Positions 13,729 through 38,565 are shown, numbered from the stretch's first letter. The stretch is 57,037 nucleotides of DNA from Candidatus Aminicenantes bacterium (GCA_016931595.1 JAFGEN010000159.1:1-57037), one strand, 5' to 3'. A program made the numbers and translations. The notes: generated by a model from the sequence alone, not told the origin.

Positions 13729-15063
13729 CTATTTTTCTTTCGCCGGGAGGGGCTTCATCCTCTTGTTGATCCCGTAAACAACCAGTCCGAGGGCCGTCAA
13801 GCCGAGGCCGGCCAGCGATTCCTTCGGACGATAGAGAAGCCCGTAGACCAGGATGTAAACGTGGATCGCCAGAAAGGCGAGGGGCACCCACGGATAACCG
13901 ATCGTCCTGTAGGAGCGGGGAAGGTCCGGACGCTTTTTCCGCATGATCATCACCCCAAGGACCGTCATGAAGGTGAAGATGTTGAGGGTGAAGCCGATGA
14001 AGACGATGACTTGCTCGAATGTCGATGTGACGATGTAGAAAACGGAGAGGAGGCCCTGGACGACGATGGCCAAGGCCGGGATGTCCTTTTTTGTCGTCTT
14101 CCCCAGCCGCCGGAAGAGGCGGTAGTCCTCCCCGAGAACCCGCGAAATTCTCGGCCCGGCGATGATCATCGCGCTGATGCTGGAGAGAAGGAGGAAGGCG
14201 ATGATCCCGCCCATCAGCCGCCCCCCGACGCTCCCGAAGACCCGGTCGGCGAACACATACCCGACCTCGAGCTTTCCGGCCAGTTCGGCGATGGGAACGG
14301 TTCGAAGGAAGACGAAATTGAGAAGCACATACAAGACGATGACGATCAGCGTCCCGCTGATCAGGCTCTTGGGCAGGTTCTTCTGAGGACAATCGATCTC
14401 CCCGGCGCAGTAAGCCGCGGCGTTCCAACCGGAATAGCTGAACGTCACAAAAAACATCGAGACGGCGAACGCCGGGCTGAGAATATCACTCCAAGCCTTG
14501 GCCGAGGGGGCGAAGGACATCCCGGCCGACTTGCCCAGGACCAGGCCCAGGGCGACGATCAAGACGATGAAGATGACCTTGAATATCGTGATGACGTTCT
14601 GGAACCGGGCGCCGAGGTTCTTGTCCAGGCTGTGAACAGCGGTCACGGCGGCGACAACGGCGATGGCCGTCACAGAGGAGGTCGACAGTCCGAGGAAGCC
14701 CGGCTGCTCCTGAAGCGACAGGGCGCTTCCGAGGTACCGGCCCAACCCCATGGCCGCGGCCGCCACGGGTGCGGCGAACCCGACAAGGAATGAGATCCAG
14801 CCGGCCAGGAAACCGACGGCCGGATGGAACATCTCGGACAGAAAGTGGTATTCCCCGCCGCTTCTGGGGAACATGACCGCGGCCTCCGAATATGTCAGAG
14901 CCCCGAACAGGGCGATGGCCCCGCCCACGATCCAGAGGAGGAGGAGAGCCGAACCGGAGGTGATCCCGGCCGCCTGGAATCCGAGACTGGTGAAGACGCC
15001 CGTTCCGACCATATTGGCTACGACCAGGGCGGTGGCAGTGGTGAGGCTGAATGTGTTTTTCAT
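13729..15063 (-). CDS. APC-superfamily amino-acid permease
   Basis: Start trimmed to ATG 15063 (MKNTFSLTTATALVVANMVGTGVFTSLGFQ). ~12 hydrophobic helices. The start overlaps the upstream stop (ATGA at 15060-15063). Confidence 0.85.
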   Translation of the reverse strand: MKNTFSLTTATALVVANMVGTGVFTSLGFQAAGITSGSALLLLWIVGGAIALFGALTYSEAAVMFPRSGGEYHFLSEMFHPAVGFLAGWISFLVGFAAPVAAAAMGLGRYLGSALSLQEQPGFLGLSTSSVTAIAVVAAVTAVHSLDKNLGARFQNVITIFKVIFIVLIVALGLVLGKSAGMSFAPSAKAWSDILSPAFAVSMFFVTFSYSGWNAAAYCAGEIDCPQKNLPKSLISGTLIVIVLYVLLNFVFLRTVPIAELAGKLEVGYVFADRVFGSVGGRLMGGIIAFLLLSSISAMIIAGPRISRVLGEDYRLFRRLGKTTKKDIPALAIVVQGLLSVFYIVTSTFEQVIVFIGFTLNIFTFMTVLGVMIMRKKRPDLPRSYRTIGYPWVPLAFLAIHVYILVYGLLYRPKESLAGLGLTALGLVVYGINKRMKPLPAKEK

Positions 15064-16226
15064 TTTTTCACGATGGAGAGCAAGGCGACCTTTTTCGTCC
15101 CCCAATGATAACCGATGGGGAAGGGCAGGGACTTGGCCCTTCCCGGCTCCTCGAACGCCGCCTGCAGGTCCGGCTGGTCGAGGTTTTTGAAGTCGGCCAC
15201 CGGCGGGGCATAGGTTCCATACAAGCGAACATCCCATTTCTCCGGCTTGAAATGCCGGAAGGGAATTCCCGTATCGTCCTGGAGGATGTACCGGCTTCGG
15301 GCCAGGACAAGCTCCCGGATTCGGGAAAATTCCCGGTAATGCATTAAATACGATGCGGACTTGACGAACGTTGTCTCGAAGGGCAGACCCTGGAGATACA
15401 GGTCGAGCGGCGTTCCCTCTCCAAAGGCCTTGTTTTCCAAATCGCAGGAAATGTAGGACATGTCCCGCGGAACGCTCGTCCCTTCGGCGAAGAACGCAAT
15501 GCGGACGCCGAACGGCCGGCGCCGTTTCCGCTGTTCGCCCGGATAGGGGCTTTCGACCGCCGCCCCCTTTTCCGAAATCTCCAGACGCCGGACCGACGAG
15601 ATCGTGTAACCGCTCCTCTTCAGAAAAAAACACAGGATCGGAAGAACACCGTCGACCTTGTCGTCGGCCAGCTCGGCGTTCATGTTTTTCGTGATGAAGT
15701 AGCTCTTTTTGAAGAAATCTTCGAGCGCGTCCTGAACGCTGAGGATGTAACGGGCGGCTTTCTCCGCCTCGGACGCCTGGAATTCGGGCATCCGCCCGAC
15801 AAACTCCAGGCCGAGGAGAAGGTAATGAGCCGCTCCGGGATAAAGAACGAGCGGCGTCAACCCGTCGGGCCCGCCGAAGGGATAAAAGAGCGTCGCCGCG
15901 GCCGCCCGGGACTCGGCGATTTCCCGCTCGGCCCAGGTCCGGATCGGCCCCAGCCGGGCGGATTCCATCGCCGCCCATTGTTCTTCCAGGGCGGCGGCGT
16001 ACGCCCGGTACTCATCCGTTTCCTGGAACTCCATGTAGGGCGCCGTCCGGCAAGGCCGGCCCGCTAAAAACGAGGCGATCTCGTCGTAAACCGGGTCGAC
16101 GGGAAGGCCTCGGACCGGGCTCTCCGCTTGCGGCCGCACATCGGCTTGGCCGGATAATCCGGCCGCACACACGGCCGCCCAGGCAGCCGCCGCGAACACA
16201 ATCAAACGGGTTCGTCTCTGCTTCAT
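15060..16226 (-). CDS. Secreted protein of unknown function
   Basis: ATG 16226 gives MKQRRTRLIVFAAAAWAAVCAAGLSGQA (signal-peptide-like). A TTG at 16259 is an alternative start. Contains FYPFGGPDG but no family recognised. Translationally coupled to the permease. Confidence 0.6.
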   Translation of the reverse strand: MKQRRTRLIVFAAAAWAAVCAAGLSGQADVRPQAESPVRGLPVDPVYDEIASFLAGRPCRTAPYMEFQETDEYRAYAAALEEQWAAMESARLGPIRTWAEREIAESRAAAATLFYPFGGPDGLTPLVLYPGAAHYLLLGLEFVGRMPEFQASEAEKAARYILSVQDALEDFFKKSYFITKNMNAELADDKVDGVLPILCFFLKRSGYTISSVRRLEISEKGAAVESPYPGEQRKRRRPFGVRIAFFAEGTSVPRDMSYISCDLENKAFGEGTPLDLYLQGLPFETTFVKSASYLMHYREFSRIRELVLARSRYILQDDTGIPFRHFKPEKWDVRLYGTYAPPVADFKNLDQPDLQAAFEEPGRAKSLPFPIGYHWGTKKVALLSIVKK

Positions 16227-16354
16227 CGATGATCCAGGGCCGGAAAAATCGGTTTTCAACCCTTGCCCGAAATCCGGGTGAACGCGTCATCATAAGATAC
16301 TCGAGGAGAAAAAGCGAATTCCAAACGGGAGGTCGGGATGTTCGGCGGGAACGC

Positions 16355-18034
16355 TCAGCCCGCCGCCGGCTTCGGCTTCTTGATGATCACAAGCGTCCGG
16401 TCGTCCTCGGGATCTCCTCCCCCCGAAAACTCCCTGAGGGCGGTGAAGATGTCGGCCAGGATGTCCTCGGCGCATTTCCCGGCCGAGCCCCGGACGGATT
16501 TGATCACGCCTTCCACCCCGAATTCCTCTCCGGCCGCATTCCGGCTTTCGGTGATTCCGTCGGTATAGAGGATGAGAACATCGCCGGAACCCAGGGTGAC
16601 CCGGCCTTCCCCGTATTCGAGCCCGGCCAGCATGCCCAGGGCCATCCCCGTTCCTTCGAGCGGCCGGGTGACGCCGGAGGCGGCCAGGTGCAGCGGGGGA
16701 TTATGGCCGGCGTTGACGTAGCGAAAACCGCCGTCGGCGGGATTGAGCTCCCCATAAAAAAAGGTGATGAACACGTTCGGGGCCGAGCTTCGGAAAATGA
16801 ATTCGCTCAGCTTATGGGCCAGTTCTCCCGGGGCCACCCCCGGCCGGGCCTCCGACTGAAGGGCGGCTCGAAGCGAGGCCATGAGGAGCGAGGCGCTGAC
16901 GCCCTTGCCGGCGACATCGGCGATCGTCAGTCCGAGGCGGCCGTCGGCCAGGGAGATGAAATCAAAGTAGTCCCCGCCCACGTGCAGCGACGGAATCGAC
17001 TCGGCTGAAATCTCGAAATCCCTGCAGACCGGAAAGTCCTTGGGCAGCAGGCCCCGCTGGATTTCGGCGGCCAGGCGGAGCTCCCGCTCCAGGCGCTCGC
17101 GGGCCTGGACATCCTCGACCATTCGGGCGTTTTCAATTTTAACGGCGGCCAAGTTGGCCAGAAGCGTCAGGAGCCGGAGATCTTCCTCGGTGAACGGCTC
17201 CCGGCTCGAAACCCGCTCGGCGCAGACGACTCCCAGCGTCTCCTTCTCGGTCTCCAGGGGAACGCACATCGCCGAATGAAGGCCCATGTCGATGATGCTC
17301 TGGCGGTCGGCAAAGCGCGGGTCCTCGGCCGCGTCGGATGTCAAGACGGACAGTTTCCGGGAAGCGGCCATTTCGACCAGCCCCCGGCTGATCTGCATCC
17401 GGCTCTTCTGCAAGTGGGGATTACTGACCCTGACGGCCCGGGGGACAAGCGTATCGGGGTCGTCGTCCTCCATGAGGAACAGGGCCCCGCGGTCCATCGG
17501 AAGGTGAGAGGAGATCAGGTTCATGATATATTCGAGCAGCTCCTGGAGGGGCTTGTGAATCAGGAGAGCCCGACTGACCTCGTTCATGACGACAAGAAGC
17601 CGGTCGTCCCCGGGAGGCCTTTTTTCCGGCCCCAGAGGCCGCAGCCCGGCGTCCGTGCTCCGGCTGACGATATCGCGCGACGGGAGAGCCGTGCTGACCC
17701 TGACTGAAAGTCTCGGAGAATCAGTGATCTCGACGGCCTCCGTCCAGGGCCGGTCGAAGCAAATGCGGACCGCGCCGATTGAAATTTCGTCCCCCGGGAC
17801 GAGAAGAACGGGTTCGACCACCCGGAGCCCGTTGATCATGGTGCCGTTCTTACTCCCGGCGTCCTCCACGGTCCAACCCCGGGACGTTCTCTTGATCCGG
17901 GCGTGGCGGCTGGAGATGTAGGCGTCGGGCAATCGGACATCGGCATCGACGGCCCGGCCGAGGACGATTTCGTCCTTCTCCAGAACAACGGAAAACGACG
18001 GCGCTTGTTTTGGATACACATAAAGCGTCGACAT
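16355..18034 (-). CDS. FHA-GAF-PP2C (SpoIIE/RsbU-type) serine phosphatase
   Basis: ATG 18034 with GAGGTGA upstream. FHA stretch GRAVDADVRLPDAYISSRHARI...GSKNGTMING. Central GAF-like region. PP2C motifs HVGGDYFDF and LYTDGITE. Confidence 0.85.
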   Translation of the reverse strand: MSTLYVYPKQAPSFSVVLEKDEIVLGRAVDADVRLPDAYISSRHARIKRTSRGWTVEDAGSKNGTMINGLRVVEPVLLVPGDEISIGAVRICFDRPWTEAVEITDSPRLSVRVSTALPSRDIVSRSTDAGLRPLGPEKRPPGDDRLLVVMNEVSRALLIHKPLQELLEYIMNLISSHLPMDRGALFLMEDDDPDTLVPRAVRVSNPHLQKSRMQISRGLVEMAASRKLSVLTSDAAEDPRFADRQSIIDMGLHSAMCVPLETEKETLGVVCAERVSSREPFTEEDLRLLTLLANLAAVKIENARMVEDVQARERLERELRLAAEIQRGLLPKDFPVCRDFEISAESIPSLHVGGDYFDFISLADGRLGLTIADVAGKGVSASLLMASLRAALQSEARPGVAPGELAHKLSEFIFRSSAPNVFITFFYGELNPADGGFRYVNAGHNPPLHLAASGVTRPLEGTGMALGMLAGLEYGEGRVTLGSGDVLILYTDGITESRNAAGEEFGVEGVIKSVRGSAGKCAEDILADIFTALREFSGGGDPEDDRTLVIIKKPKPAAG

Positions 18035-18044
18035 CGATCTCACC

Positions 18045-20471
18045 TCATTTCATCGATTTCAGGATCCGCCGGGCGGCCCGGGCTTTCTCGACCTGAGGCG
18101 CGTCTTCCAGCAGGGGGAGGATGATCTCCTTGACAGCCATCGGAAGGACATTTTCCAAAAGCTCCAGGGCGTAGTCCACGGCCCGCTTCGTTCCCTCGGT
18201 ATAGTTCTGCAGGGCTTGGCTGATGTCCGCATGGGGATAAATCAAGCCGAGAAGGAGGAACAACGGCCGGAAATTGCGACTCGGAGCCGCCCGGTTTTCG
18301 GCGTCCCGGCAGGCGCCCTCGACCCAGCAGCGGACTTCCGGCATGATGTCGCGCTCCCGAAACTTGATGCGTTCGTTGCGGGTCCGGAGCTTGAACAGCG
18401 CCTCGATCACCGCTTCGTGAACCTCGGAATCGCGCCGGCGGAGCTGCCGGACCAGGGCCTCGGCCGCCCGGGGCGTTCCGATCTCGGCCAGGACGAAGGG
18501 CAGGGCCTGCCGGACGGCCCGGTCGGCCCGAAAATCGGCCAGCCAGACACGAAGGACAGTTACGGCCTTGTCGCTGTAAGCGGCCAGAGCCTCGCCCGCC
18601 CGGTCGCTGACCGAGGGACGACCCAGGTGGGGTACGATCAGGGGAAGGTATTCGCGTTTTTTCAACCGCCCGGCGCTTTCCAGGGCGTATTGAACCACAC
18701 CCGGCGACTCGTGCCTCAGCAGGAGGGTCAGATTTTCGGTCAGGGGGGCGTCGGCCGGCATCATGCCCAGGGCTTTGGCCACTTCCATCTGGTCGACCTC
18801 CCGGGCGGGGGCCGCGTCGCCGGCGATCGCGTCGAAGGACGGCCGCATGATATTCTGGTAGGCGTCCAAGGCCAGGACTTCCCGGACGGTCACATCGATC
18901 GGCTCCTTGTCGGAAGGCTCCGACCAGTCGGGGCCGAGGGCCTCGGAATCGGCATCGAGCAGCGTATCGAGGGCCGAAGCCCGGACCTCGGCCGACTTGT
19001 CCGACAGGACCTGGCGGAGCTCGGGGGTCAGCTTTTCAGCCCTCAGGAGGTCGAACAGGTTGTAAGCGTAAAGAACGGAGCTCCGCTCCCGGCTTTCCAG
19101 GAGGTCCAGCAACTGCTTGGCCGTCTCCGGCCGGGCCTGCTCCCGGACGAGGCGCTCGGCGTCAGGGCGCGAGGGGACGAGATTTTCCCGGATTGCCGGC
19201 AGGTAGCGCCGCCCGATCCGGGCGAGGATTAAAAACCACACGACGACGATGGCAATCGTCACCAGGCTCATCCGGGCGGCGGGAAAGGCCAGCACGATTC
19301 CAAAGACAACCTGGAGGAGGCTGGCCAGGGCCTCGCCGGTCTTGCTGACAAACATGTCGATCGTCATTTTGGCCTTGGCCTTGATGTCCTGGGGAACCGG
19401 AATGTAGAGTAGCTCCCGGGTGGCTTGGCTGAAGGTGTGGGTCAGGCTCTTGTCCGCGCCTTTCATGAAGATCGCCCAGGAGGCAAACCCGGCCGCCGGC
19501 AGGAGGAAGAACGCCGCCGATCCGGCCGCCAGGAAAATCGGCATCACGAACAAGGCCGCCCGGACGCCCAAAGCCTGGATCGCCCGGTTTGCCAGGAGTG
19601 AATTCAGGAGCCATGAAACGACCAGGACACCGACGGAAAAAACAGCCAGAAAGGATGTCCGCCGGGCCTCTTCATTTTCGAAGGCGGCTTTGACCGCCAG
19701 ATTGAATTGAAAATCGATCATCGTCGAGGCAGCCAGGGCGACGACGATTAGGGCGGCCAGGAGACGAAGATAAGGTTTCCCGGCAACGGTCCGGAAACCG
19801 TCACGGAAATCCGGCGGCCGGCCTGATGCGGCGGCCGGAGCGGAGGGGGCCTGCCGGACCGCAGCCCGGACAAAGACCGTTCCGGCCAGGTAGAACACCA
19901 GGCCGAGGAGGATGAGGTTTCGCGCCGGCATCAGGCGGGAAAGGAACACGACGATGACGGAACCGCAGATGCCTCCCAGAAGGCCCCCGCTGACAAAAAA
20001 ACTGACCAGGTGCTTGGCCCGCCGCGGCGGACAGACGGACCCGACAACGACCCAAAACTGCGTGACGGAAGCCAGGACAAAGATTTCCAGCCAGAACCAG
20101 TAAAGGGCCGGAACAATCGACCGGCCCGGACCGAGGTCGCGGGTCAGCCAGAACAGGAAGAAAAAGGCGGAGGTTCCAAGGGCGAAAAGCCACCGGGTCA
20201 GGGACAGGTAGGCCCGGCGGTCGAGAGAGCGGATTTTTTTCGTGTTCCAGGCCGCAAAGACACCGGTCAGAACCGCCGAGACGAAATAGACGAGCGGCAG
20301 GGAGCCCTTGGTCAGCCCCAAGCCGAGGAACAGCGAGGTCTTCGAAACCTTGGAGACGTAGATCGAGGCCATCAGGAAGAAAAAGTGGGCGAAGAGATAC
20401 CCGACAACCCGCTCCTCCCCGGCCTGAACAGGGGCAAATCGCCGGAGAAAGAATCCGAAGCGGCCTTTCAT
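18045..20471 (-). CDS. TLC/NTT-like (ATP:ADP antiporter family, MFS fold) transporter fused to a C-terminal HEAT-like repeat domain
   Basis: ATG 20471 (MKGRFGFFLRRF...); a TTG at 20489 is also possible. N-terminal ~430 aa polytopic, starting EERVVGYLFAHFFFLMASIYVSK. C-terminal ~350 aa of helical repeats (SAEVRASALDTLL, ESPGVVQYALESAGRL, DRAGEALAAY, VRQALPFVLAEIG). The family call is by resemblance only. Confidence 0.55.
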   Translation of the reverse strand: MKGRFGFFLRRFAPVQAGEERVVGYLFAHFFFLMASIYVSKVSKTSLFLGLGLTKGSLPLVYFVSAVLTGVFAAWNTKKIRSLDRRAYLSLTRWLFALGTSAFFFLFWLTRDLGPGRSIVPALYWFWLEIFVLASVTQFWVVVGSVCPPRRAKHLVSFFVSGGLLGGICGSVIVVFLSRLMPARNLILLGLVFYLAGTVFVRAAVRQAPSAPAAASGRPPDFRDGFRTVAGKPYLRLLAALIVVALAASTMIDFQFNLAVKAAFENEEARRTSFLAVFSVGVLVVSWLLNSLLANRAIQALGVRAALFVMPIFLAAGSAAFFLLPAAGFASWAIFMKGADKSLTHTFSQATRELLYIPVPQDIKAKAKMTIDMFVSKTGEALASLLQVVFGIVLAFPAARMSLVTIAIVVVWFLILARIGRRYLPAIRENLVPSRPDAERLVREQARPETAKQLLDLLESRERSSVLYAYNLFDLLRAEKLTPELRQVLSDKSAEVRASALDTLLDADSEALGPDWSEPSDKEPIDVTVREVLALDAYQNIMRPSFDAIAGDAAPAREVDQMEVAKALGMMPADAPLTENLTLLLRHESPGVVQYALESAGRLKKREYLPLIVPHLGRPSVSDRAGEALAAYSDKAVTVLRVWLADFRADRAVRQALPFVLAEIGTPRAAEALVRQLRRRDSEVHEAVIEALFKLRTRNERIKFRERDIMPEVRCWVEGACRDAENRAAPSRNFRPLFLLLGLIYPHADISQALQNYTEGTKRAVDYALELLENVLPMAVKEIILPLLEDAPQVEKARAARRILKSMK

Positions 20472-20496
20472 CGGCTGGGCCTTCCCCAAGCCCGGC

Positions 20497-20844
20497 TCAG
20501 CTTTTTATAAAGCTCGCGAGGGCTTTCTCCTCATTGTCCTGGATATCCAGGACCCGGGTCAGCTGGGTGACTTGAAAGACCAGGAAGAGGCGGGGCGATA
20601 TGCCGGCCAGCTTCAGCCGCCCGCCGGAGTTTTGGGTCGAAATATAGCTGGCCAGGATCTCGCCGATGCCGAAGCTGTCGATGAACGGGACCTTGGCGAA
20701 ATTCATCAGGATGTCGCGCCGGCCTTCTTCCAATTCTTCCTTGACGTGCTGGTGGAGGGAAACGCCGGGCGCGTCCGAACGTCGGATCTCGCCCTCCAGG
20801 TCAAAGACGACGATATTCTCCCGGTCCCGCTTGGTAATCAGCAT
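20497..20844 (-). CDS. STAS-domain anti-sigma-factor antagonist (SpoIIAA/RsbV-like)
   Basis: 115 aa. Typical FIDSFGIGEIL motif (DSxG phosphorylatable Ser) and C-terminal LKLAGISPRLFLVFQVTQL. Confidence 0.85.
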   Translation of the reverse strand: MLITKRDRENIVVFDLEGEIRRSDAPGVSLHQHVKEELEEGRRDILMNFAKVPFIDSFGIGEILASYISTQNSGGRLKLAGISPRLFLVFQVTQLTRVLDIQDNEEKALASFIKS

Positions 20845-20865
20845 GCACTGGCCTCTTTTTTCAAT

Positions 20866-20894
20866 ACAGTATCGGAACCCGGCGGGGATGTCAA
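20866..20894 (-). promoter_or_regulatory. Candidate sigma70 promoter of the STAS/NTT-HEAT/PP2C operon
   Basis: On the minus strand: TTGACA (20894-20889), 17-nt spacer, TACTGT (20871-20866), then AAGAGG RBS and ATG 20844. Confidence 0.5.
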
Positions 20895-20910
20895 ATGAGA
20901 ACGCTTCTCC

Positions 20911-20941
20911 TTGACTATGCCCGGCCCGAAAGGCATATTAA
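20911..20941 (+). promoter_or_regulatory. Candidate promoter of the phosphatase/kinase-like/NTT operon
   Basis: TTGACT 20911-20916 followed at 17-19 nt by CATATT / TATTAA (20934-20941). The -10 is imperfect. Confidence 0.35.
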
Positions 20942-20963
20942 GAGCCGAGGAGAGGGTTCCGGC

Positions 20964-22103
20964 ATGCCGAGAAGGAGCGAAGCGTCATCCCGGCTGAGAC
21001 GCCTTCGTCCGACTGCGGCTCTCGCTTTGCTCGCCGCCCTTCCGTTTCTCTGTCACTGCTCCCACCGGACCGATATCGCCGTTATCGCTCCGTCCCCGGC
21101 CGGCTCGAGTCCATCCCTGGAAACAACGCCCTTTCCCCCGGCGCCCTATCCGGAGCGCGGCCGGCCCTGCGTCTTCACGGGAGTCGAAACAATCGTCGCC
21201 GTCGGCGACATCCACGGCGCTTACGACGCGTTTGTCGATATCCTGAAAACGATGGGCTTGGTCGACCGCCATCTCCGCTGGACGGGAGGCCGGACGCATC
21301 TCGTCCAGATGGGCGACGTGATGGACCGGGGGCCAAAAGCCCGGGCCGTCATCGACCTCATCCGCCGCCTGGAACGGGAAGCCGAGGAGGACGGGGGAGC
21401 CGTCCATATGCTTCTCGGAAACCACGAAGAGATGAACATCCTCGGCTATTCCTTCGAAACCAAGGGATACGTCACTCCCGAGCAATTCCGCGATTTTCTT
21501 CCCTCCCGGCTCCGAGACCGGAAGGACGCCGAATTCCAGTCCCAGGCCCCCACCTACCAAGAATACAACCGGCTCTGGCAGGAATATATGGACGGCAACC
21601 CCCAGGCCCGGGACCTCTATACCAACACGTTCAACCGAACCTACGGGAGGTGGCTCGCCGGCCGTCCCGTCGTCATCAAGATCAACGACACCGTGTTCGT
21701 CCACGGCGGCCTGACCGAGGCCCTTTCGGTGCTATCCTGCGAGACGATCAATGCCTCGCTCTCTCTCGAATTGGAGCGATACCTGCGGAAAGAGGATTTC
21801 GATTGGGCCTGGATTTACCAGCCCCGGGGCCCGCTCTGGTATCGCGACCTCGCCCTGACCCCCGAGGAGACTCTTCGCGATGAAGTCGACCGCATCCTGG
21901 CCAACCTGAAGGCCCGGGCGATCGTCATCGGCCACTCCCCCGCCCCGGCCTATGGCCTGAATCCCCTCCGGGGCCGGTTCGGGGGCAAGGTTTGGACGAT
22001 CGACACCGGCATCTGGATGAAAGACGGCGGAACGCGGTCCGCCCTGGTTATTAAAAACGATGAAATCCGGTTGATCATGATCGGAAAGGGAGAGGAGAGG
22101 TAG
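20964..22103 (+). CDS. Exported PPP-family (calcineurin-like) metallophosphatase, Ser/Thr-phosphatase type
   Basis: ATG 20964. N-terminal RLRRLRPTAALALLAALPFLCHC signal-like segment. Motifs GDIHG, GDVMDRG, GNHE, VFVHGG, IGHSP. Confidence 0.85.
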   Translation: MPRRSEASSRLRRLRPTAALALLAALPFLCHCSHRTDIAVIAPSPAGSSPSLETTPFPPAPYPERGRPCVFTGVETIVAVGDIHGAYDAFVDILKTMGLVDRHLRWTGGRTHLVQMGDVMDRGPKARAVIDLIRRLEREAEEDGGAVHMLLGNHEEMNILGYSFETKGYVTPEQFRDFLPSRLRDRKDAEFQSQAPTYQEYNRLWQEYMDGNPQARDLYTNTFNRTYGRWLAGRPVVIKINDTVFVHGGLTEALSVLSCETINASLSLELERYLRKEDFDWAWIYQPRGPLWYRDLALTPEETLRDEVDRILANLKARAIVIGHSPAPAYGLNPLRGRFGGKVWTIDTGIWMKDGGTRSALVIKNDEIRLIMIGKGEER

Positions 22104-22107
22104 GAAA

Positions 22108-22944
22108 ATGAGCAAAAGAAGGATAAGGCATCTCGTCTTCGGACTTCTCGTCGCCGGCCTGATTCCGGCCGGGGCGGCGGGCGGGCAAGCTCCCCGGGAG
22201 CCCCAAACAGCCAAGGAGATCGAAGCGTTCCTGAGTTCGGCCCGCGTCGCCTCCGTGGAAAAGGATGCCGAGATGGGGCGATCCCTCCCCTGGCGGGTGA
22301 CCCTTGATGACGGAGAGTTCCAGGCCCGGGCCATGTTCAAGTACATCGACCGCCGGACCGTCCAGTCCTCGCGCCACAGTTACCGGTACGAATTGGCCGC
22401 CTACGACTTCAGCCGCCTCCTTGACCTGGAGATCGTTCCTCCCGTCGTCCTTCGGGACATCGAGGGGTCGCCCGGAAGCCTTCAGTGGTACGCCGAGAAC
22501 TGCCGAAGCGAGCGCGACCGCCGCCGGCTCAACCTGGCTCCTCGCGAACTCGAAGCCTTCCTCCACAGACTCGAAATCGTCCAGATTTTTGAGGCGTTGG
22601 TGAACGACGATTGCGGCGACCAGGACGACACGCTCATTCACAAGGATTCCTGGGAAATTTGCCGGGTCGACTTCTCGGCAGCTTTCCGCCCGTCCCCCTC
22701 TCTTTCCACCGGCTGCCTCGTCCGGCGGTGCTCCCGAACGCTGTTCCACCGGCTCGAAGATTTGAAGCGCCCGGTGATCGCCAACCGGATGAAGCCCTAC
22801 CTGAACGGACAGGAAATCGACGCCCTCTTTCGAAGAGTCCGTCAATTCATCGACCTCATCAAGAACGAAATCCGGGACAAGGGCGAAGCCGCCGTCCTGT
22901 TCGATTTGAAAAATCCGGAGCCGCGGGGAGCGGGCCATGACTGA
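22108..22944 (+). CDS. Signal-anchored PI3/4-kinase-fold protein, paralogue 1 (divergent catalytic loop)
   Basis: Starts 4 nt after the phosphatase stop. N-terminus MSKRRIRHLVFGLLVAGLIPAGAAG. Motifs AMFKY, YELAAYDFSRLLDLEIVPP, ALVNDDCGDQDDTLI and RVDFSAAF align with paralogue 2. Confidence 0.5.
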   Translation: MSKRRIRHLVFGLLVAGLIPAGAAGGQAPREPQTAKEIEAFLSSARVASVEKDAEMGRSLPWRVTLDDGEFQARAMFKYIDRRTVQSSRHSYRYELAAYDFSRLLDLEIVPPVVLRDIEGSPGSLQWYAENCRSERDRRRLNLAPRELEAFLHRLEIVQIFEALVNDDCGDQDDTLIHKDSWEICRVDFSAAFRPSPSLSTGCLVRRCSRTLFHRLEDLKRPVIANRMKPYLNGQEIDALFRRVRQFIDLIKNEIRDKGEAAVLFDLKNPEPRGAGHD

Positions 22945-24340
22945 ACAGGCCGGCGGATCACCCCGCCGTCCGTCCCCGGCCGCCTCAGCGGCCGCCGGTT
23001 TTCTCCGGATGTTCACGGTCATCCGTCCGGAGGAAACGGCCAAGGCCCTCCTCCTCGCCCTGAACAGTTTTTTGATCATCTTCGGCTATTACCAGATCAA
23101 GGCCGTCCGGGAAGGGCTTCTTCTGGCCGCCCACCCGGCCTCGGTCAAAAGCTACCTGGCCATTCCCCAGGCGTTCCTTCTGATATTCGTGATCAAGGCG
23201 TTTTCCCGGGTTTCCTCCAAAGTCCCCCGGCATGTGCTGATCGCCTGGGTCTCGCTGTTCGCCGCCTCCAACCTCCTGGTCTTCATCCTCCTCCACGCCG
23301 CGGGCGTATCCGTCGCCGTCATCGGCCTGGCGTTCTTCATCTGGATCGGGATGTACAATCTCCTCATCCCGGCCCAGTTCTGGGGATTCGCCAACGATCT
23401 ATACGATGAAGCCCAGGGCAAACGGATTTTCCCGCTGATCGCCCTCGGGGCCTCGCTAGGCGGCGTGGCCGGACCGATCGTGGCTCGCCAGCTCATCCCC
23501 CATCTGGGCTCCTACGGGATGATGGCCGTGACGGCGGCCCTCCTGGGCCCCGCCGTCTGGCTGACTTGGAGAATCCATGCCCTTGACCTGCGCGAACATA
23601 GGCGGCTGACGGGCGAAAAGACACCGGCTCAAGCAGCTCCGCTCCAAGCGAAAGGCGGATTCCGGCTGATCTTCACCAGCCGATACCTCCTCCTGATCGC
23701 CCTCATGATGGGCCTCTACAACTTCATCAATGCCCTGGGCGAATATATGTTTTCCGCCCTTCAACAGGAGGTCGCCCTGCGGGAACTGGCGACGGCGGCC
23801 GGCGGCGGGATGGACCTTCAGAAATACATCGGCGTCGCCTTCGCCGGTTATCAATCGCTCGGCAACACAATCGGCCTGTTGATCCAGCTCTTCCTCGTAT
23901 CCCGGATCTTCCGCTGGGTGGGCGTCGCCGGAGCTCTCCTGTTCCTCCCCGTCATCGCCCTGGGCGGCTACGGCTATGCCGCCTTCGGCGCCTCTCTCCT
24001 CCTCTTGAAGTGGATCAAGTCGGTCGAAAACGGCACGGATTATTCGCTGATGAAGACGACCCGATCGGCCCTTTTCCTCGTCACCAGTCGGGAGGAAAAG
24101 TACAAGGCTCAGGCGGCGATCGAAACGTTTTTCGTCCGCGGAGGAGACACGCTCTGCGCCGCCGCGGTTTGGCTGGGGACCGGCGCCCTGGCCTTTTCCA
24201 TCAGGGGCTTCGCGGCTCTCAACGCCGCCGCCGTCATCATCTGGATCGGGCTTTGCCTGTTGATCATCAAGGAATACAAGAGAGTCAAGGCTGCCCGGGA
24301 AGCCGCCCGGATCCCGGCGACCGACGGACCGAGCGAATGA
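22937..24340 (+). CDS. TLC/NTT-like (ATP:ADP antiporter family, MFS fold) transporter
   Basis: ATG 22937 overlaps the upstream stop (ATGACTGA). 467 aa, about 12 hydrophobic helices. N-terminal EETAKALLLALNSFLIIFGYYQIKAVREGLLLA parallels the 18045-20471 paralogue. The family call is by resemblance only. Confidence 0.55.
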   Translation: MTEQAGGSPRRPSPAASAAAGFLRMFTVIRPEETAKALLLALNSFLIIFGYYQIKAVREGLLLAAHPASVKSYLAIPQAFLLIFVIKAFSRVSSKVPRHVLIAWVSLFAASNLLVFILLHAAGVSVAVIGLAFFIWIGMYNLLIPAQFWGFANDLYDEAQGKRIFPLIALGASLGGVAGPIVARQLIPHLGSYGMMAVTAALLGPAVWLTWRIHALDLREHRRLTGEKTPAQAAPLQAKGGFRLIFTSRYLLLIALMMGLYNFINALGEYMFSALQQEVALRELATAAGGGMDLQKYIGVAFAGYQSLGNTIGLLIQLFLVSRIFRWVGVAGALLFLPVIALGGYGYAAFGASLLLLKWIKSVENGTDYSLMKTTRSALFLVTSREEKYKAQAAIETFFVRGGDTLCAAAVWLGTGALAFSIRGFAALNAAAVIIWIGLCLLIIKEYKRVKAAREAARIPATDGPSE

Positions 24341-24374
24341 CAACCCGGCTTGGGACCGGGGAGGAGGACCCATC

Positions 24375-25205
24375 ATGAGCAAAGCGAAAAAGAGGATTTT
24401 TGCGCTGGCGGTTCCGGCGGCCCTGGCCGTCATCCTTGCAGCTCAATTCAACCCGGATGAAATCAGTCGGGACAGGGATTGGGAAGAGTTTCTGTCGAAG
24501 GCCGAGATGACCGTGGAAAAGCAGATGACCGGTCCGGGAGCCGTCACCAATCCGTACAAAATGCTTTTGGAAATGGACGGCCGGAAGCGCTTCGCCGCCT
24601 GGAAAAATCCCCAGGGACGGATGGGGGGAGCCATGGAAGGCTGGATGTGGGAAATCGCCGCCTACCGGCTCGACCGCTGGCTCGGCCTGAACATGGTCCC
24701 CGTGACGATCGAACGGCGTTTTCGGGAAAACAGGGGTTCGCTCCAGCTCTGGGTCGAGGGGACGTTCCCCTACCTGGAGATCATGGAAGGCCGGACCAAG
24801 ATGCCGGGCGGAATGAAGGGCGTTCTCCTCAACCGCCAGGTCTATCTCCAAAGAGCCTTTGACGACCTGATCTACAACGAAGACCGCCATGCCAACAACA
24901 TCCTGATCACCGACGACTGGAGAATGATTCTCATCGACCATTCCCGTTCGTTTCGGACATCGAAGGCCTCGCTGACCACCCTGCTTTACAACCCAAAAAG
25001 CCGAACCCATCCGGGGACCATCTCCGCCCTGCCGTCGGCATTCGTCGAGAAGTTAAAAGCGCTGACCCCGGAGATCGTCCGGACGATCGTCGAATCTTAT
25101 CTGACCAAGAAAGAAATCGAGGCGGTCATGGTCCGCCGCGATTTGATTCTGAAGGAAATCGACCGGTTGATCGCCCTCAACGGGAAAGCCCAGGTTCTTT
25201 ATTGA
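24375..25205 (+). CDS. Signal-anchored PI3/4-kinase-fold protein, paralogue 2 (canonical DRHxxN loop)
   Basis: GGAGGAGG RBS. N-terminus MSKAKKRIFALAVPAALAVILAAQ. Motifs FAAWK, WEIAAYRLDRWLGLNMVPV, LIYNEDRHANNILI and ILIDHSRSF resemble type-II PI4K / PI3-4-kinase catalytic and activation segments. Confidence 0.6.
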   Translation: MSKAKKRIFALAVPAALAVILAAQFNPDEISRDRDWEEFLSKAEMTVEKQMTGPGAVTNPYKMLLEMDGRKRFAAWKNPQGRMGGAMEGWMWEIAAYRLDRWLGLNMVPVTIERRFRENRGSLQLWVEGTFPYLEIMEGRTKMPGGMKGVLLNRQVYLQRAFDDLIYNEDRHANNILITDDWRMILIDHSRSFRTSKASLTTLLYNPKSRTHPGTISALPSAFVEKLKALTPEIVRTIVESYLTKKEIEAVMVRRDLILKEIDRLIALNGKAQVLY

Positions 25206-25620
25206 AGACCTTGCGAAGGACGAGGACATTTTCCCCGCCTTCGCGCCTGTAAGTCAGCTCGTCGGAAAACGTCCGGACCAGGTGAACCCCCAGGCCGCCT
25301 ATTTTCCTGCCTCCAAGGATGTCGTCCAAGGCCGGCGGCGGAGCCGCCAGCGGATTGAAGGGGACGCCGCGATCGCGGATCTCCAGGTAAACCGATTCAG
25401 GCTCCGGCCGGACGGTCAAACGAATCTCCCCGGCCGCGGCAGGATACCCGTAGCGGACAATATTCACGAGGATTTCAAAAAGCGCCAGGTCGAGTTGAAA
25501 CAGGCTTTCGCCGTCGAGGGGCCCTTCCCGCAACCGTCCTTTCAGGAACAGCCGGGCCCGGTCGATCTCGCCCAGTTCGGCGGGAATCGTTAGGCTGTCC
25601 GGCCCTTCGTCCGCGCTCAT
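25177..25620 (-). CDS. RsbW/SpoIIAB-like anti-sigma serine kinase (HATPase_c)
   Basis: 147 aa. N-box EILVNIVRYG, G1 IRDRGVPFNP, G2 GGLGVHLV. The 3' end overlaps the convergent 24375-25205 gene by 29 nt. Its start overlaps the stop of the GT9 gene lying upstream of it on the minus strand (ATGA). Confidence 0.8.
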   Translation of the reverse strand: MSADEGPDSLTIPAELGEIDRARLFLKGRLREGPLDGESLFQLDLALFEILVNIVRYGYPAAAGEIRLTVRPEPESVYLEIRDRGVPFNPLAAPPPALDDILGGRKIGGLGVHLVRTFSDELTYRREGGENVLVLRKVFNKEPGLSR

Positions 25621-26582
25621 CGCTTTCTCGTTATACCATAAAACGAGCCCGGAATCCGAACGGACGGGAACCGGGAAAGAACCGAGTCGACGGAAATATC
25701 CCGGACGTCGGGGGCCTCGAGCGTTTCGATCATCCCGTAAGGGCGCCAGGCCTTGATGAATTCCGACCGGAAGACGGCCAGGCCCGGAGTTCCGAGGGCC
25801 GCGGCCAAGTGGGTGATGCCGGAATCATTCCCGAAATAAGCCGCCGCGCCGGAAATGAGGGCGGCCAAAGAGAGGAGGGACGGTCGGTCAAGGAGAATCC
25901 AGCCGGGAGGAAAGGCGAAAGATGACCACTCGATCCGAATGGCCGATTCGGCCTCCCCGAGAACAACCGCCCCGGAAAATCCGTTTCCGGCCATGGCCCC
26001 GATGACCTCCCGAAACCGCTCCCCAGGCCAACGCTTGGCCTGGCCGCCGCCGCCGGGATGAACGACGGCATACGCCCGGGACAGGGACGCAGCCGACCCG
26101 GGAAGCGGCGCCGAAGGAGGCGCGAGCCGGGAGCAAACCTCGAACGAATCCATTGGACGCCCCGTTTCTCCGCAGAAGGAGGACGTTTTCTCGAAAAATT
26201 GCCGTGAAAGGGGCTGACCGGAGAGCGGGCCGGCTCGGACGGCCAGGACCGGCCTTTCAGGCCGGAGAGCCGCCATCCCTTCGATGAACCCTTCGGCTGA
26301 ATTCGAATGGAACCAGCCCGCAACTAAAGCGGCCTCGGATAAAACGGCCGGAACGGCCGGGCTCGGACCGGAAAGGCAGGCCCAGGCAAAATTCCCTATA
26401 TCCTCGACCTCATCGACGACCCCCGCTTTCAGAAAAAGGCTGCCGTAGACACGGTGCGAAACCAAGGTCAGGCGGGCCTCGGGGAAGACGGACCGAAGAA
26501 GACGGAGCGACGGCCCGGCGACCAGCAGGTCGCCCAAACCGCCCCGTCGGACGGCTACGATCGAACCCGGATTAACCTGCAT
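25617..26582 (-). CDS. Glycosyltransferase family 9 (heptosyltransferase-like)
   Basis: RRGGLGDLLVAGPSL near the N-terminus and GNDSGITHLAAALGTP near the C-terminus. Confidence 0.8.
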   Translation of the reverse strand: MQVNPGSIVAVRRGGLGDLLVAGPSLRLLRSVFPEARLTLVSHRVYGSLFLKAGVVDEVEDIGNFAWACLSGPSPAVPAVLSEAALVAGWFHSNSAEGFIEGMAALRPERPVLAVRAGPLSGQPLSRQFFEKTSSFCGETGRPMDSFEVCSRLAPPSAPLPGSAASLSRAYAVVHPGGGGQAKRWPGERFREVIGAMAGNGFSGAVVLGEAESAIRIEWSSFAFPPGWILLDRPSLLSLAALISGAAAYFGNDSGITHLAAALGTPGLAVFRSEFIKAWRPYGMIETLEAPDVRDISVDSVLSRFPSVRIPGSFYGITRKR

Positions 26583-26778: not shown

Positions 26779-27471
26779 TCAAGACTCTTTTTCGGGGGTC
26801 CTGGGAAGGCCCTTCTTCTCGATATGGTGCTTGATCGTCTTGCCCTTGACCATGTAGATGACGTCCTCGGCAACGTTGGTCGCGTGATCGGCCATCCGTT
26901 CCAGGTTTCGGCTGACGAGAATCAGGGCGACCGCGCGCTGAATGTTGCGGGAGTCCTGCATCATGAAGGTCAGGAGCTCCCGGAAAATCTGATCGTCCAG
27001 GGCATCGACCTCATCATCCCGGATGCAGACGTCCCGGGCCAGGGCTTCATCCCTGTTGATGAAGGCATCGATAGAGTCACGGACCATGGCCTGGGCCGCC
27101 CGGGCCATCCGGGGAATGTCGATCAGGGGCTTGAGCAGGGGCAGGCGGGCCAGGTCCAGGGCCAGTTCGGCGACGTTGACCGCCAGGTCGCCCATCCGTT
27201 CCAGGTCGCCGCTGATTTTCATGGCTGAGGTGATGAACCGAAGGTCGCCGGCCATCGGCTGGCGGAGGGCCAGGAGCCGCATGCAGGTCTCGTCGACCTC
27301 GACGTCGAGAAGATTGATGTTTTCCTCGATTTTCAGGACTTCCCGGGCCGGCTCTTCCTTCTGGTCCTTCAGGGCCTCGATGGCCAAGGACAAGGCATCC
27401 TCAACCGAGGCGGCCATCCGCAGGAGTCGTTCCTTGAGAAATTGCAGTTCTTCGTCGAATACGCGTTCCAT
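26779..27471 (-). CDS. phoU: Phosphate signalling complex protein PhoU
   Basis: Start trimmed to ATG 27471 (GAAGGAG RBS). Two PhoU repeats with DLERMGDLAVNVAE and NLERMADHATNVAED. Confidence 0.9.
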   Translation of the reverse strand: MERVFDEELQFLKERLLRMAASVEDALSLAIEALKDQKEEPAREVLKIEENINLLDVEVDETCMRLLALRQPMAGDLRFITSAMKISGDLERMGDLAVNVAELALDLARLPLLKPLIDIPRMARAAQAMVRDSIDAFINRDEALARDVCIRDDEVDALDDQIFRELLTFMMQDSRNIQRAVALILVSRNLERMADHATNVAEDVIYMVKGKTIKHHIEKKGLPRTPEKES

Positions 27472-27663: not shown

Positions 27664-27691
27664 TCCATCTCAAATCCCATATTGATTCCGT

Positions 27692-31084: not shown

Positions 31085-31088
31085 GCCA

Positions 31089-38549: not shown

Positions 38550-38565
38550 TGAAAAGGAGACAACC

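Follow-up and report, generated by a model that had tools for sequence, protein, structure and literature searches.

What does a partner switch control when its genes enclose that of a transporter? The three-protein phospho-switch of STAS protein, kinase and PP2C phosphatase normally controls a sigma factor. Such a set is encoded in a contig from a Candidatus Aminicenantes MAG, a class of uncultured sediment bacteria, and the whole stretch of 57,037 nucleotides (the window) was analyzed. The order on the minus strand is STAS, a transporter of 808 residues with an NTT/TLC membrane domain and C-terminal HEAT repeats (NTT-HEAT), and an FHA-GAF-PP2C phosphatase, with an RsbW-type kinase gene 4.3 kb off. 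Positions 15060-25620 form a single conserved Aminicenantes gene cluster with the following features.

15060 to 16259, minus strand: U399, predicted exported, highly conserved accessory protein downstream of the phosphatase gene; signal-like N-terminus in 100% of orthologues
16355 to 18034, minus strand: FHA-GAF-PP2C (SpoIIE-type) phosphatase (SpoIIE match 4.4e-50), predicted STAS-P phosphatase and signal input
18045 to 20471, minus strand: NTT-HEAT transporter, 808 aa when read from ATG 20471 (a TTG at 20489 opens the mechanical ORF)
19179 to 20471, minus strand: its membrane domain, residues 1 to about 431, with about 12 helices in an NTT/MFS fold (AF2 helices 20-431)
18048 to 19166, minus strand: its cytoplasmic HEAT-repeat domain, residues about 436-808 (HEAT_2 7.8e-11), the proposed docking surface
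20497 to 20844, minus strand: single-domain STAS protein of the SpoIIAA/RsbV type, 115 aa (PF01740 2.9e-13)
20845 to 20894, no strand assigned: short intergenic region from which the STAS and exported-enzyme operons diverge, containing a perfect TTGACA (minus strand, 20889-20894)
20895 to 22103, plus strand: MPE402, predicted exported PPP-family metallophosphatase, divergent from STAS (Metallophos 6e-15); likely start near 20964
22108 to 22944, plus strand: U278, predicted exported kinase-like protein, a pseudokinase-like paralogue of U276 (22-28% identity)
22937 to 24340, plus strand: TLC467, second NTT/TLC transporter, without HEAT (TLC 6.7e-11; TIGR00769 3e-11)
24375 to 25205, plus strand: U276, predicted exported FAM20/PI4K-II-like kinase-like protein with the full catalytic residue set
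25177 to 25620, minus strand: RsbW-type GHKL serine kinase, 147 aa (HATPase_c_2 6.9e-26), predicted STAS kinase

The cluster and its predicted switch proteins

Domain searches returned the four switch and transporter genes with the coordinates and domains that an earlier note on this DNA had given them, the kinase 4.3 kb away included. The gaps of 25 nt (STAS/NTT-HEAT) and 10 nt (NTT-HEAT/PP2C) are also as described there, provided that ATG starts are used. The interval of 4.3 kb that separates the kinase gene from STAS had been taken as mere spacing, which was wrong, since it holds four genes of the same conserved cluster, for the second NTT, the two predicted exported kinase-like proteins and the predicted exported PPP-family phosphatase. 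These genes alter the likely physiological meaning of the link between switch and transporter. Export signals are predicted and conserved on U276, U278, MPE402 and U399, and are absent from STAS, RsbW and PP2C. As read from its sequence, the cluster combines a predicted cytoplasmic phospho-switch with NTT-type transporters and exported phospho-transfer enzymes. Since the consensus scan of 20845-20894 scored no full promoter, promoter function in this divergent region is only inferred.

The STAS protein scored 56.1 bits against TIGR00377 (anti-sigma factor antagonist), above the cut-off of 53.45. Its motif DSFGIG occupies residues 56-61 (within FIDSFGIG), and the predicted phospho-acceptor Ser57 aligns with phospho-Ser58 of SpoIIAA (1th8, 4.7e-10) and is invariant among 59 orthologues, giving a single-domain STAS protein with a conserved phosphorylatable residue. 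It is the best-conserved component, with a median pairwise identity of 76%, versus 59% for PP2C and 41% for RsbW. The phosphatase comprises FHA (residues 26-90, 1e-18), GAF (166-303, 3e-20) and SpoIIE/PP2C (367-555) domains, and the metal-binding motifs GGDYFD, DVAGKG, TDGITE and DDRT are kept intact across 69 orthologues.

The RsbW-like kinase gave weak RsbW and RsbA matches and missed all NCBIfam RsbW/SpoIIAB (anti-sigma) equivalog cut-offs. It is genetically linked to STAS, also in four rearranged loci (L006, L059, L092, L085) and, fused to PP2C, in L095. The kinase gene overlaps with a GT9 gene that is translationally coupled to it, and the GT9-RsbW order recurs. The set shares with SpoIIAA-SpoIIAB-SpoIIE and RsbV-RsbW-RsbU the STAS phospho-Ser, the small GHKL serine kinase and the PP2C/SpoIIE phosphatase with N-terminal sensors. 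However, the window and most relatives lack a linked sigma factor gene, a transporter gene lies between the STAS and phosphatase genes, and the kinase, below every anti-sigma equivalog cut-off, is usually encoded 4-7 kb from STAS, behind the exported-enzyme operon.

Transporters and exported enzymes

NTT-HEAT is 100% identical to NCBI JW843_05985, and its Pfam matches are TLC (8.2e-11, above the gathering score) and HEAT_2. Its family profile aligned with Chlamydia NTT1 (9j3n) over residues 5-424 (3.6e-24) and with AtNTT1 (1e-13), so that homology to characterized NTTs extends across the membrane domain. The AF2 model shows an NTT-like 12-helix fold, for which the top Foldseek matches were 9j3m, 9j3n and 9j3l (AtNTT1, CpNTT1; E 1.5e-8, TMt 0.70), followed by general MFS transporters. 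The HEAT-like C-terminal domain of the earlier note was confirmed by HEAT_2, by profile matches to alphaRep/HEAT proteins (down to 2.6e-19) and by the model, which consists entirely of paired helices beyond about residue 436, with pLDDT of about 90 from residue 535. Many residues of this domain are invariant, including SSVLYAxNLFDL at 460-475, and the union of NTT domain and C-terminal HEAT in one polypeptide is common to more than 300 close homologues and to thousands of clusters.

Since NTT-HEAT reached 41.8 bits against TIGR00769 (NTP/NDP exchange transporter), far below the cut-off of 387.2, and reads FWVVVG at the FWGFAN motif of canonical NTTs, its substrate is uncertain. TLC467, found in 31 of 42 wide loci and 20% identical to the membrane domain of NTT-HEAT, scored 42.8 bits, also below that cut-off, and retains FWGFAN. 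Both are, by sequence comparison, divergent NTT members, and the family name does not settle the substrate.

Among the exported enzymes, MPE402 has conserved GDxHG, GDxxDRG and GNHE motifs and an N-terminal hydrophobic, signal-like segment, and its best solved relative is a cold-active protein-tyrosine phosphatase of Shewanella (1v73/2z72, 1e-31). It occurs in 35 of the 42 wide loci, fused to a U278-like domain in two (L092 and L095). U399 had no match in Pfam, NCBIfam or PDB searches; it is present in 15 loci, with 61% mean column identity in 14 orthologues.

Single-sequence Pfam searches with U276 and U278 gave no Fam20C match and, for U276 only, a weak PI3_PI4_kinase match, while both single sequences match the SCO1664 family. 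A joint profile of 41 sequences matched FAM20A (4.7e-9), FAM20B (8.5e-6), FAM20C (1.5e-5) and PI4K-II (5e-3), and FAM20-like genes occur in 35 of the 42 wide loci. The AF2 model of U276 (pLDDT 87.6, pTM 0.85) has a protein-kinase-like fold, with PI4K-IIbeta/alpha and PI3K kinase domains as best Foldseek matches (1.4e-7, at a modest TMq of about 0.48). The catalytic set K77, E93, N168/D170/R171 and D188, aligned to FAM20, is conserved in U276 only, whereas the catalytic loop of U278 is degenerate and not conserved among orthologues. An N-terminal signal-like segment, basic and hydrophobic and in U276 followed by a conserved AQF, was found in 97% of U276 and 95% of U278 orthologues. Since the fold of U276 resembles lipid kinases about as much as its sequence resembles FAM20, its substrate class is not fixed by homology.

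The comparison with FAM20A/B/C, which use lumenal ATP in the Golgi/ER, goes beyond a profile match that spans the alphaC helix, the catalytic loop and the metal-binding Asp. U276 and U278 form a pair of catalytically complete and degenerate paralogues, as do FAM20C and FAM20A, and a nucleotide transporter gene sits between the two, both with predicted export signals, recalling the FAM20 secretory-pathway system. In contrast, the periplasm of a bacterium would here take the place of the Golgi lumen, the mature proteins are far smaller at about 250 aa, PI4K type II and PI3K lead the fold matches of U276, and kinase activity is predicted from sequence and fold.

Gene order in related loci

The arrangement recurs in about 90 related loci at 31-86% identity. 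The comparison of co-occurrence and synteny that the earlier note had proposed placed STAS directly upstream of NTT-HEAT in 64 of 65 informative loci, down to 31% identity and with gaps of about 10-45 nt, and PP2C downstream of NTT-HEAT in 71 of 73, although these counts are inflated, since every STAS-linked locus comes from one lineage (Aminicenantes/Acidobacteriota MAGs) and shares descent. The STAS/NTT-HEAT/PP2C arrangement is not due to chance.

The adjacency of STAS and NTT-HEAT outlasts moves and losses of PP2C and kinase. The order is RsbW-STAS-NTT-HEAT-PP2C in L006, RsbW-sat-cysC-STAS-NTT-HEAT in L085, and STAS-NTT-HEAT-PP2C-RsbW followed by the exported block in L092, whose PP2C-RsbW pair is also found in L059. 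In L095, FHA-GAF-PP2C-RsbW is one polypeptide, and no second NTT stands beside the exported kinases. In at least 10 loci, the gene directly upstream of STAS encodes a Hanks kinase-TPR protein, and two related NTT-HEAT lineages (L089, L096) are without STAS.

NTT-HEAT proteins are of unknown function, with a known cNBD association (Major, Embley & Williams 2017, PMC5381601), and the literature search found no report of STAS associated with them. The window protein is like these NTT-HEAT and NTT-HEAT-cNBD proteins in its NTT/TLC membrane domain, C-terminal HEAT and adjacent small signalling gene, with 25-32% similarity across the NTT part. Its accessory, however, is not a cyclic-nucleotide-binding domain but a STAS protein with a phosphorylatable residue, which has a kinase and a phosphatase of its own. 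In addition, its subfamily is shorter (about 800-860 versus 920-1200 aa) and usually has two tandem paralogues, whereas the window holds a single copy.

In a distant NTT-HEAT clade (about 30% identical), the same exported partners were found with a cNMP-binding protein in the place of STAS. Such a protein or fused domain accounts for 21 of 63 downstream neighbors, PAS histidine kinases for 14 of 59 upstream neighbors, and NAD synthase occurs in 9 of 63 loci; STAS was not seen among the neighbors surveyed in this clade. Metallophos and U276/U278 homologues adjoin NTT-HEAT(-cNBD) in four loci (L111, L171, L162, L167), and the distant loci sharing exported partners have 52-70% GC. Because a cNMP-binding protein occupies the equivalent position, a small cytoplasmic signalling protein beside HEAT is a family-wide theme.

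Possible outputs of the switch

The comparative evidence supports a switch that would be dedicated to the transporter. From gene neighborhood and homology we tentatively propose, with a little less than even confidence, that the HEAT domain lets the STAS phospho-switch gate the transporter, which in turn supplies nucleotide to the exported kinases. The RsbW-like kinase would phosphorylate STAS at Ser57 and the FHA-GAF-PP2C phosphatase would remove the phosphate, taking as input a phospho-threonine signal through FHA (many relatives have Hanks kinase genes in the cluster) and a small ligand through GAF. One phospho-state of STAS would bind the cytoplasmic HEAT solenoid and gate nucleotide exchange, a job that a cNMP-binding protein or domain may do in other NTT-HEAT lineages. 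The gated flux would most likely be ATP export (ATP/ADP exchange) to the periplasm, where it may serve the signal-bearing FAM20/PI4K-like kinases, U276 with U278 as pseudokinase-like partner, whose modification the exported PPP phosphatase would undo. The exported kinase-like and phosphatase neighbors suggest regulated ATP delivery outside the cytoplasm. Exporting ATP to a periplasm that leaks through porins would be expensive for the cell, which would count against this mechanism.

Parts of this scheme have precedents. Partner switches with outputs other than a sigma factor include SypE/SypA, BtrU/V/W and HsbR/HsbA. HenR/All4160 of Anabaena is a further case (bioRxiv 10.64898/2026.04.08.717354). 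The outputs of these switches are enzymes, secretion or biofilm regulators, whereas a transporter is proposed here; a membrane transporter as partner-switch output is not described in the literature searched. MlaB, a free-standing single-domain STAS protein in MlaFEDB, regulates its transporter from the cytoplasmic side, with the phospho-Ser-equivalent residue in the interface and weakened binding by a phosphomimetic (PMC7367683). Its partner, however, is an ABC ATPase and it has no known kinase or phosphatase, whereas the present cluster encodes both, and the proposed partner is the HEAT domain of a secondary transporter whose gene adjoins that of STAS. In SulP/SLC26 anion transporters, a C-terminal STAS domain is coupled to a secondary transporter (PMC8256260), but it is fused in cis and without known RsbW/PP2C drive, while the present STAS is a separate protein and the transporter C-terminus is HEAT.

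A sigma factor encoded elsewhere (group-3 or RpoD) could instead be the output, sequestered by the RsbW-like kinase, with the transporter as co-transcribed cargo or regulon member. We regard this as unlikely. The three proteins do fit the SpoIIAA/SpoIIAB/SpoIIE architecture, and binding of the primary sigma factor by RsbW is reported for Chlamydia (PMC4552016). No sizeable ORF of the window contains a Sigma70 or Sigma54 domain and a six-frame phmmer search of it with an RpoD query returned nothing at E<=10, which upholds the absence of a sigma factor noticed earlier, but this says little because the window covers about 1.3% of a genome of roughly 4.3 Mb. Moreover, a gene above the RpoD_Cterm cut-off divergently adjoins STAS in 8 of about 88 loci (L094, L065, L050, L034, L056, L013, L046, L082). 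Since this adjacency is seen only in some loci, which share one related arrangement, and concerns a housekeeping sigma factor, it could be incidental; a sigma gene is absent from the other loci, about 80 of 88. It further argues against a sigma output that NTT-HEAT is the constant neighbor of STAS even where PP2C and RsbW have moved, and that the RsbW-like protein lies so far below the anti-sigma cut-offs. The earlier idea of a switch acting on the transporter stands in so far as the comparative evidence has it dedicated to the transporter and not merely parked beside it, while its argument from the missing sigma factor is weakened by the eight rpoD neighbors and its view of the 4.3-kb interval was mistaken.

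The neighborhood evidence gives no direction, and it would apply equally if NTT-HEAT were a transceptor whose HEAT domain draws in PP2C, RsbW or STAS as nucleotide flux or occupancy dictates. The output could then be, for example, an enzyme, the second NTT, transcription or the secretion of the exported enzymes. Reversed flow of this kind, which we consider improbable, would suit a phosphatase that already has two sensor domains, a kinase gene on the distal side of the exported-enzyme operon, and the sensor histidine kinases and response regulators frequent beside distant-clade NTT-HEAT genes, which fit a role in a signalling pathway. Yet the cluster has no conserved downstream output besides transporters and exported enzymes, and since the cNBD proteins found elsewhere in the place of STAS sense ligands and so are inputs, flow from regulator to transporter is the simpler reading. 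Slightly less probable again is a link at the level of the pathway, with co-expression for one envelope process (e.g., LPS or glycan modification), no contact between STAS and transporter, and a non-nucleotide cargo or import of scavenged nucleotides. The weak single-sequence TLC/NTT matches, the GT9 gene coupled to RsbW in a recurring order, and the varying nucleotide-related neighbors (sat-cysC in L085, NAD synthase in the distant clade) would agree with it. Against it, the short STAS/NTT-HEAT gaps and near-universal adjacency point to stoichiometric co-production, profile and fold put the membrane domain nearest to bona fide ATP/ADP translocators, and the exported kinase-like enzymes would require an extracytoplasmic nucleotide donor. 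Inherited gene order without functional meaning is very unlikely: the STAS-linked loci all come from the one lineage, as phylogenetic inertia would have it, but the order is kept while protein identity drops to 31-38%, at least five different rearrangements retain the partners together, two independent gene fusions occurred (PP2C-RsbW and phosphatase-U278), and the exported partners recur by NTT-HEAT in the distant clade.

Gating of the transporter by STAS through HEAT may be one case of a wider system, a reading that is speculative and rather unlikely to hold in full. Aminicenantes and some NTT-HEAT-cNBD bacteria would then have regulated extracytoplasmic phosphorylation as a counterpart of the secretory-pathway kinases of Golgi and ER, in which NTT exchangers bring ATP to the periplasm for exported FAM20/PI4K-like kinases, U276 as the active one beside a pseudokinase-like U278, the exported PPP phosphatase reverses the modification, and a STAS switch or, in other lineages, cyclic nucleotide acts on HEAT to turn the ATP supply on and off from the cytoplasmic side. 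If true, it would contradict the textbook view of a periplasm without ATP-dependent chemistry and would give NTT-HEAT proteins their first function.

The partner switch and its transporter

The STAS protein, the NTT-HEAT transporter, the FHA-GAF-PP2C phosphatase (hereafter PP2C) and the RsbW-type kinase reported in the earlier note are real genes with Pfam/NCBIfam matches, and the gaps claimed there also hold (read from the ATG starts, 25 nt between STAS and transporter and 10 nt between transporter and PP2C). The cluster is larger than that note described. The 4.3-kb stretch between STAS and the kinase, treated there as mere distance, is instead an equally conserved, divergently transcribed operon.

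Genes of the cluster in the window (coordinates, strand, product)
15060-16259, minus: U399, very highly conserved protein with a predicted signal peptide following PP2C, 61% mean column identity
16355-18034, minus: PP2C, with domain matches to FHA (26-90), GAF (166-303) and PP2C (367-555)
18045-20471, minus: NTT-HEAT, 808 aa from ATG, TLC and HEAT_2 matches
20497-20844, minus: STAS, 115 aa, PF01740 at 2.9e-13, TIGR00377 anti-sigma-antagonist cut-off passed
20895-22103, plus: MPE402, PPP-family metallophosphatase divergent from STAS
22108-22944, plus: U278, paralogue of U276 with a degenerate catalytic set
22937-24340, plus: TLC467, second NTT without HEAT, 467 aa, keeping the canonical FWGFAN, unlike the NTT-HEAT copy
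24375-25205, plus: U276, paralogue of U278 with a full catalytic set
25177-25620, minus: RsbW-type kinase, HATPase_c_2 at 6.9e-26

The motif DSFGIG occupies residues 56-61 of STAS, where Ser57 aligns to phospho-Ser58 of SpoIIAA (1th8/1auz), and this serine showed no variation among orthologues. No other cluster member is as conserved as STAS, whose median pairwise identity is 76%, versus 59% for PP2C and 41% for the kinase. The absence of a sigma factor across the 57 kb, also claimed previously, holds: a Pfam scan found no sigma-factor domain in any other sizeable ORF of the window, and a six-frame phmmer search with RpoD as query gave no match even at E ≤ 10. Since promoter and terminator scans inside the operon gave nothing above background, the operon structure rests on the short gaps and the conserved gene order.

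NCBI protein JW843_05985 and the window transporter have the same sequence (100% identity). A profile built from 14 members of the family matched Chlamydia pneumoniae NTT1 (9j3n) over residues 5-424 (E 3.6e-24) and AtNTT1 at 1e-13, and its C-terminal part gave matches with E as low as 2.6e-19 to HEAT (alphaRep) proteins, both natural and designed. In the AF2 model (mean pLDDT 73.7), about 12 membrane helices reach up to residue 431, residues 426-532 are all-helical but of low confidence, and 535-808 form a confident helical solenoid; together with the HEAT_2 and alphaRep matches, the solenoid bears out the HEAT-like C-terminal domain proposed from the sequence. The best PDB folds were the ATP/ADP translocators AtNTT1 and CpNTT1 (E 1.5e-8, target TM 0.70), with generic MFS transporters scoring below them. 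The NCBIfam NTT cut-off was widely missed (42 vs 387 bits), and FWVVVG stands at the position of the canonical FWGFAN. The protein is, by its sequence, a divergent NTT whose substrate is only putatively a nucleotide. The invariant, low-pLDDT segment SSVLYAxNLFDL (460-475) was considered as a STAS-specific docking site and rejected, because the clade associated with cyclic-nucleotide-binding domains (cNBD) has the equivalent VLYALxLLE; the motif is the first HEAT repeat, common to the whole family.

NTT-HEAT proteins have been described as a fusion that is monophyletic, widespread and without known function, with a cNBD often encoded next to it or fused (Major, Embley and Williams 2017, PMC5381601). 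An exhaustive HMMER search retrieved 7,381 clusters at 50% identity related to the NTT-HEAT query. To our knowledge, no function has been assigned to these proteins since their description in 2017.

Gene order among Aminicenantes relatives

Window proteins were mapped onto 80 species-level genome loci and 15 more from contig look-ups, whose transporters share 31-86% identity with the window copy. Since a profile scan of genome contigs with the Aminicenantes NTT-HEAT alignment yielded Aminicenantes/Acidobacteriota loci only, cross-phylum synteny was followed through cluster representatives, contig look-ups and then a metagenome scan with distant NTT-HEAT seeds.

The co-occurrence that the earlier note proposed to check was found. 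An automatic count placed STAS directly upstream of the first NTT-HEAT gene in 61 of 65 informative loci; three of the four exceptions (L042, L047, L092) do have STAS, leaving L089 as the sole real one. The PP2C gene lies downstream of NTT-HEAT in 71/73 loci. A tandem NTT-HEAT pair occurs in 73 of 88 loci, and the window's clade has a single copy. All STAS-linked loci belong to one lineage, and STAS is absent from two related NTT-HEAT lineages.

The kinase gene changes place among these loci: the order is GT9-RsbW-STAS-NTT-HEAT-PP2C in L006, and in L092 and L059 the kinase follows PP2C immediately. Locus L095 (12509-14617, plus strand) encodes a single 702-aa FHA-GAF-PP2C-RsbW polypeptide, in which the predicted phosphatase and kinase of the same STAS are joined in one protein. 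Because of this fusion and of linkage that persists through rearrangements, the kinase at 25177-25620 is considered cognate to STAS and PP2C, as had been proposed. In at least 10 loci the gene immediately upstream of STAS encodes a Hanks-type Ser/Thr kinase-TPR protein, a plausible input for the FHA domain of PP2C.

In locus L085 (5196-10394, plus), the order RsbW-ATP sulfurylase-APS kinase-STAS-NTT-HEAT runs on one strand, and PP2C is not nearby. This arrangement ties switch and transporter to PAPS synthesis in one Aminicenantes lineage, and it raises the possibility that the transporter carries an adenine nucleotide different from ATP. In the window, a GT9 (heptosyltransferase-family) gene (25617-26582, minus) shares 4 nt with the start of the kinase gene; GT9 followed by the kinase was seen again in L004, L006, L007 and L014, a coupling that may hint at an envelope-glycan connection.

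Predicted exported enzymes and the distant NTT-HEAT clade

Signal-like N-terminal segments are conserved in 88-100% of the orthologues of U276, U278, MPE402 and U399, and were never found in STAS, kinase or PP2C orthologues. The exported block is present in 35 of the 42 loci with sufficient flank, and TLC467 in 31/42 related loci. The closest solved relative of MPE402 is a Shewanella PPP-family cold-active protein-tyrosine phosphatase (1e-31). A joint U276/U278 profile matched the FAM20A/B/C secretory-pathway kinases (4.7e-9) and type II PI4K (5e-3), with alignments spanning the alphaC helix, the catalytic loop and the metal-binding Asp. For U276, AF2 gave a confident model (pLDDT 87.6, pTM 0.85), whose best fold matches were PI4K-II and PI3K kinase domains (1.4e-7, TMq about 0.48). 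U276 retains Lys77, Glu93, Asn168/Asp170/Arg171 and Asp188, and the catalytic loop is lost in U278. More than 2,000 "hypothetical proteins" make up this family, for which Pfam lacks a dedicated model.

In L092 and L095 the phosphatase is joined to a U278-like domain in one protein; judging by ORF size, L054, L062, L068 and L083 may have this fusion too. U399, with the motifs FYPFGGPD, KSYFITxNM and KSASYLMHY, lies downstream of PP2C in 15 loci and gave no match in Pfam, NCBIfam or PDB sequences.

As seeds, the metagenome scan used distant members of the NTT-HEAT family, about 925-1,200 aa long and sharing about 30% identity with the window transporter. Their immediate downstream neighbours were cNMP-binding proteins (21/63) and NAD synthase (9/63), and upstream stood PAS histidine kinases (14/59), a tandem NTT (9/59) and response regulators (6/59); STAS was not found in these lists of 63 downstream and 59 upstream neighbours. 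Clear homologues of the exported phosphatase lie beside the transporter in 4 of 80 distant loci (GC 52-70%), three of which (L111, L167, L171) also carry U276/U278 homologues there (E 1e-43 to 1e-100 for these assignments).

Distant loci with exported-phosphatase homologues (gene content)
L111: Metallophos - NTT-HEAT - cNBD - U278-like
L162: Metallophos, with a 4-nt overlap with NTT-HEAT
L167: NTT-HEAT, Metallophos and a U276-like gene
L171: NTT-HEAT-cNBD fusion - U278-like - Metallophos

The transporter thus recurs in combination with the phosphatase and the kinase-like protein, both predicted to be exported, while the regulator is swapped, a STAS switch in one case and a cNBD in the other. 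The case for an action of STAS on NTT-HEAT, on which the cNBD presumably acts too, draws its strongest support from this recurrence, which also argues for a transporter role tied to the exported enzymes.

Elsewhere in the window, directly beside the cluster (26779-31871), phoU (minus) and a divergent pstS-pstC-pstA operon with two ABC ATPase genes encode high-affinity phosphate uptake. The region 269-6374 (plus) encodes a 1,182-aa PilZ, acyltransferase-like and methyltransferase protein followed by a hybrid HisKA-HATPase-receiver-HD-GYP protein, a c-di-GMP-related pair unconnected with the STAS/NTT-HEAT cluster. Long ORFs with coding-like GC3 at 34720-35964 (minus), 38536-40125 (plus), 40156-42789 (plus) and 47419-48510 (plus) had zero Pfam matches.

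Proposed mechanism and meaning

From gene content and order, we infer a mechanism in which the STAS switch would gate NTT-HEAT, which in turn would feed the exported enzymes. The RsbW-like kinase would phosphorylate STAS at Ser57, and PP2C, controlled through its FHA (phospho-Thr input) and GAF (ligand input) domains, would remove the phosphate. In one phospho-state, STAS would dock on the cytoplasmic HEAT solenoid and gate exchange. Since exported kinase-like enzymes need an extracytoplasmic nucleotide donor, ATP/ADP exchange into the periplasm would be the simplest physiological reading, and close gating would limit the ATP lost through porins. The stronger reading, in which exported kinases draw on a regulated supply of ATP in the periplasm, is proposed tentatively and is less likely than not.

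The central claim of the earlier note, that the transporter may be the output of the switch, is partly supported: it gains from the regulator swap and from the constant adjacency of STAS and transporter, and is weakened by the rpoD-type gene beside STAS in eight loci. The output may instead be a sigma factor whose gene lies elsewhere: a sigma gene of the housekeeping type, scoring above the RpoD_Cterm cut-off, stands divergently next to STAS in L094 (5863-7410, minus), L065, L050, L034, L056, L013, L046 and L082, and Chlamydia RsbW is reported to bind the primary sigma factor (PMC4552016). Nevertheless, the window and about 80 of 88 loci lack any sigma gene, while the transporter is the constant neighbour of STAS. 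The flow may also be reversed, with the transporter as a transceptor, which is compatible with the same neighbourhood data. Linkage at the pathway level without contact, or merely inherited gene order, is less likely given the short gaps, the gene fusions and the recurrence across clades; chance or inertia is unlikely.

Control of a transporter by STAS has a parallel in MlaB, a free-standing STAS protein that regulates the MlaFEDB transporter with its phospho-site residue in the interface (PMC7367683). No kinase or phosphatase is known for the phosphoregulation proposed for MlaB, whereas the Aminicenantes cluster is predicted from its genes to encode both. Partner switches with non-sigma outputs have also been described (bioRxiv 10.64898/2026.04.08.717354). 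The components are of known kinds (partner switch, NTT-HEAT, PPP phosphatase, atypical kinase fold), and no prior description of their combination was found among the papers searched on Aminicenantes NTT/HEAT, periplasmic ATP/kinases and bacterial FAM20.

NTT-HEAT proteins are common among free-living bacteria and form thousands of sequence clusters. The Aminicenantes gene cluster provides testable hypotheses for their regulation, through docking of a small signalling protein on HEAT, and for their role, as nucleotide supply for exported kinase-like enzymes. Since few small genes define the system, heterologous expression is feasible although the organisms are uncultured. If the mechanism is true, partner switching would reach beyond transcription and enzymes to the direct control of a membrane transporter. 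A regulated periplasmic ATP supply would be highly significant. If the exported proteins are active kinases served by an ATP exchanger, it would be necessary to revise the view that ATP-dependent phosphorylation in bacteria is confined to the cytoplasm.
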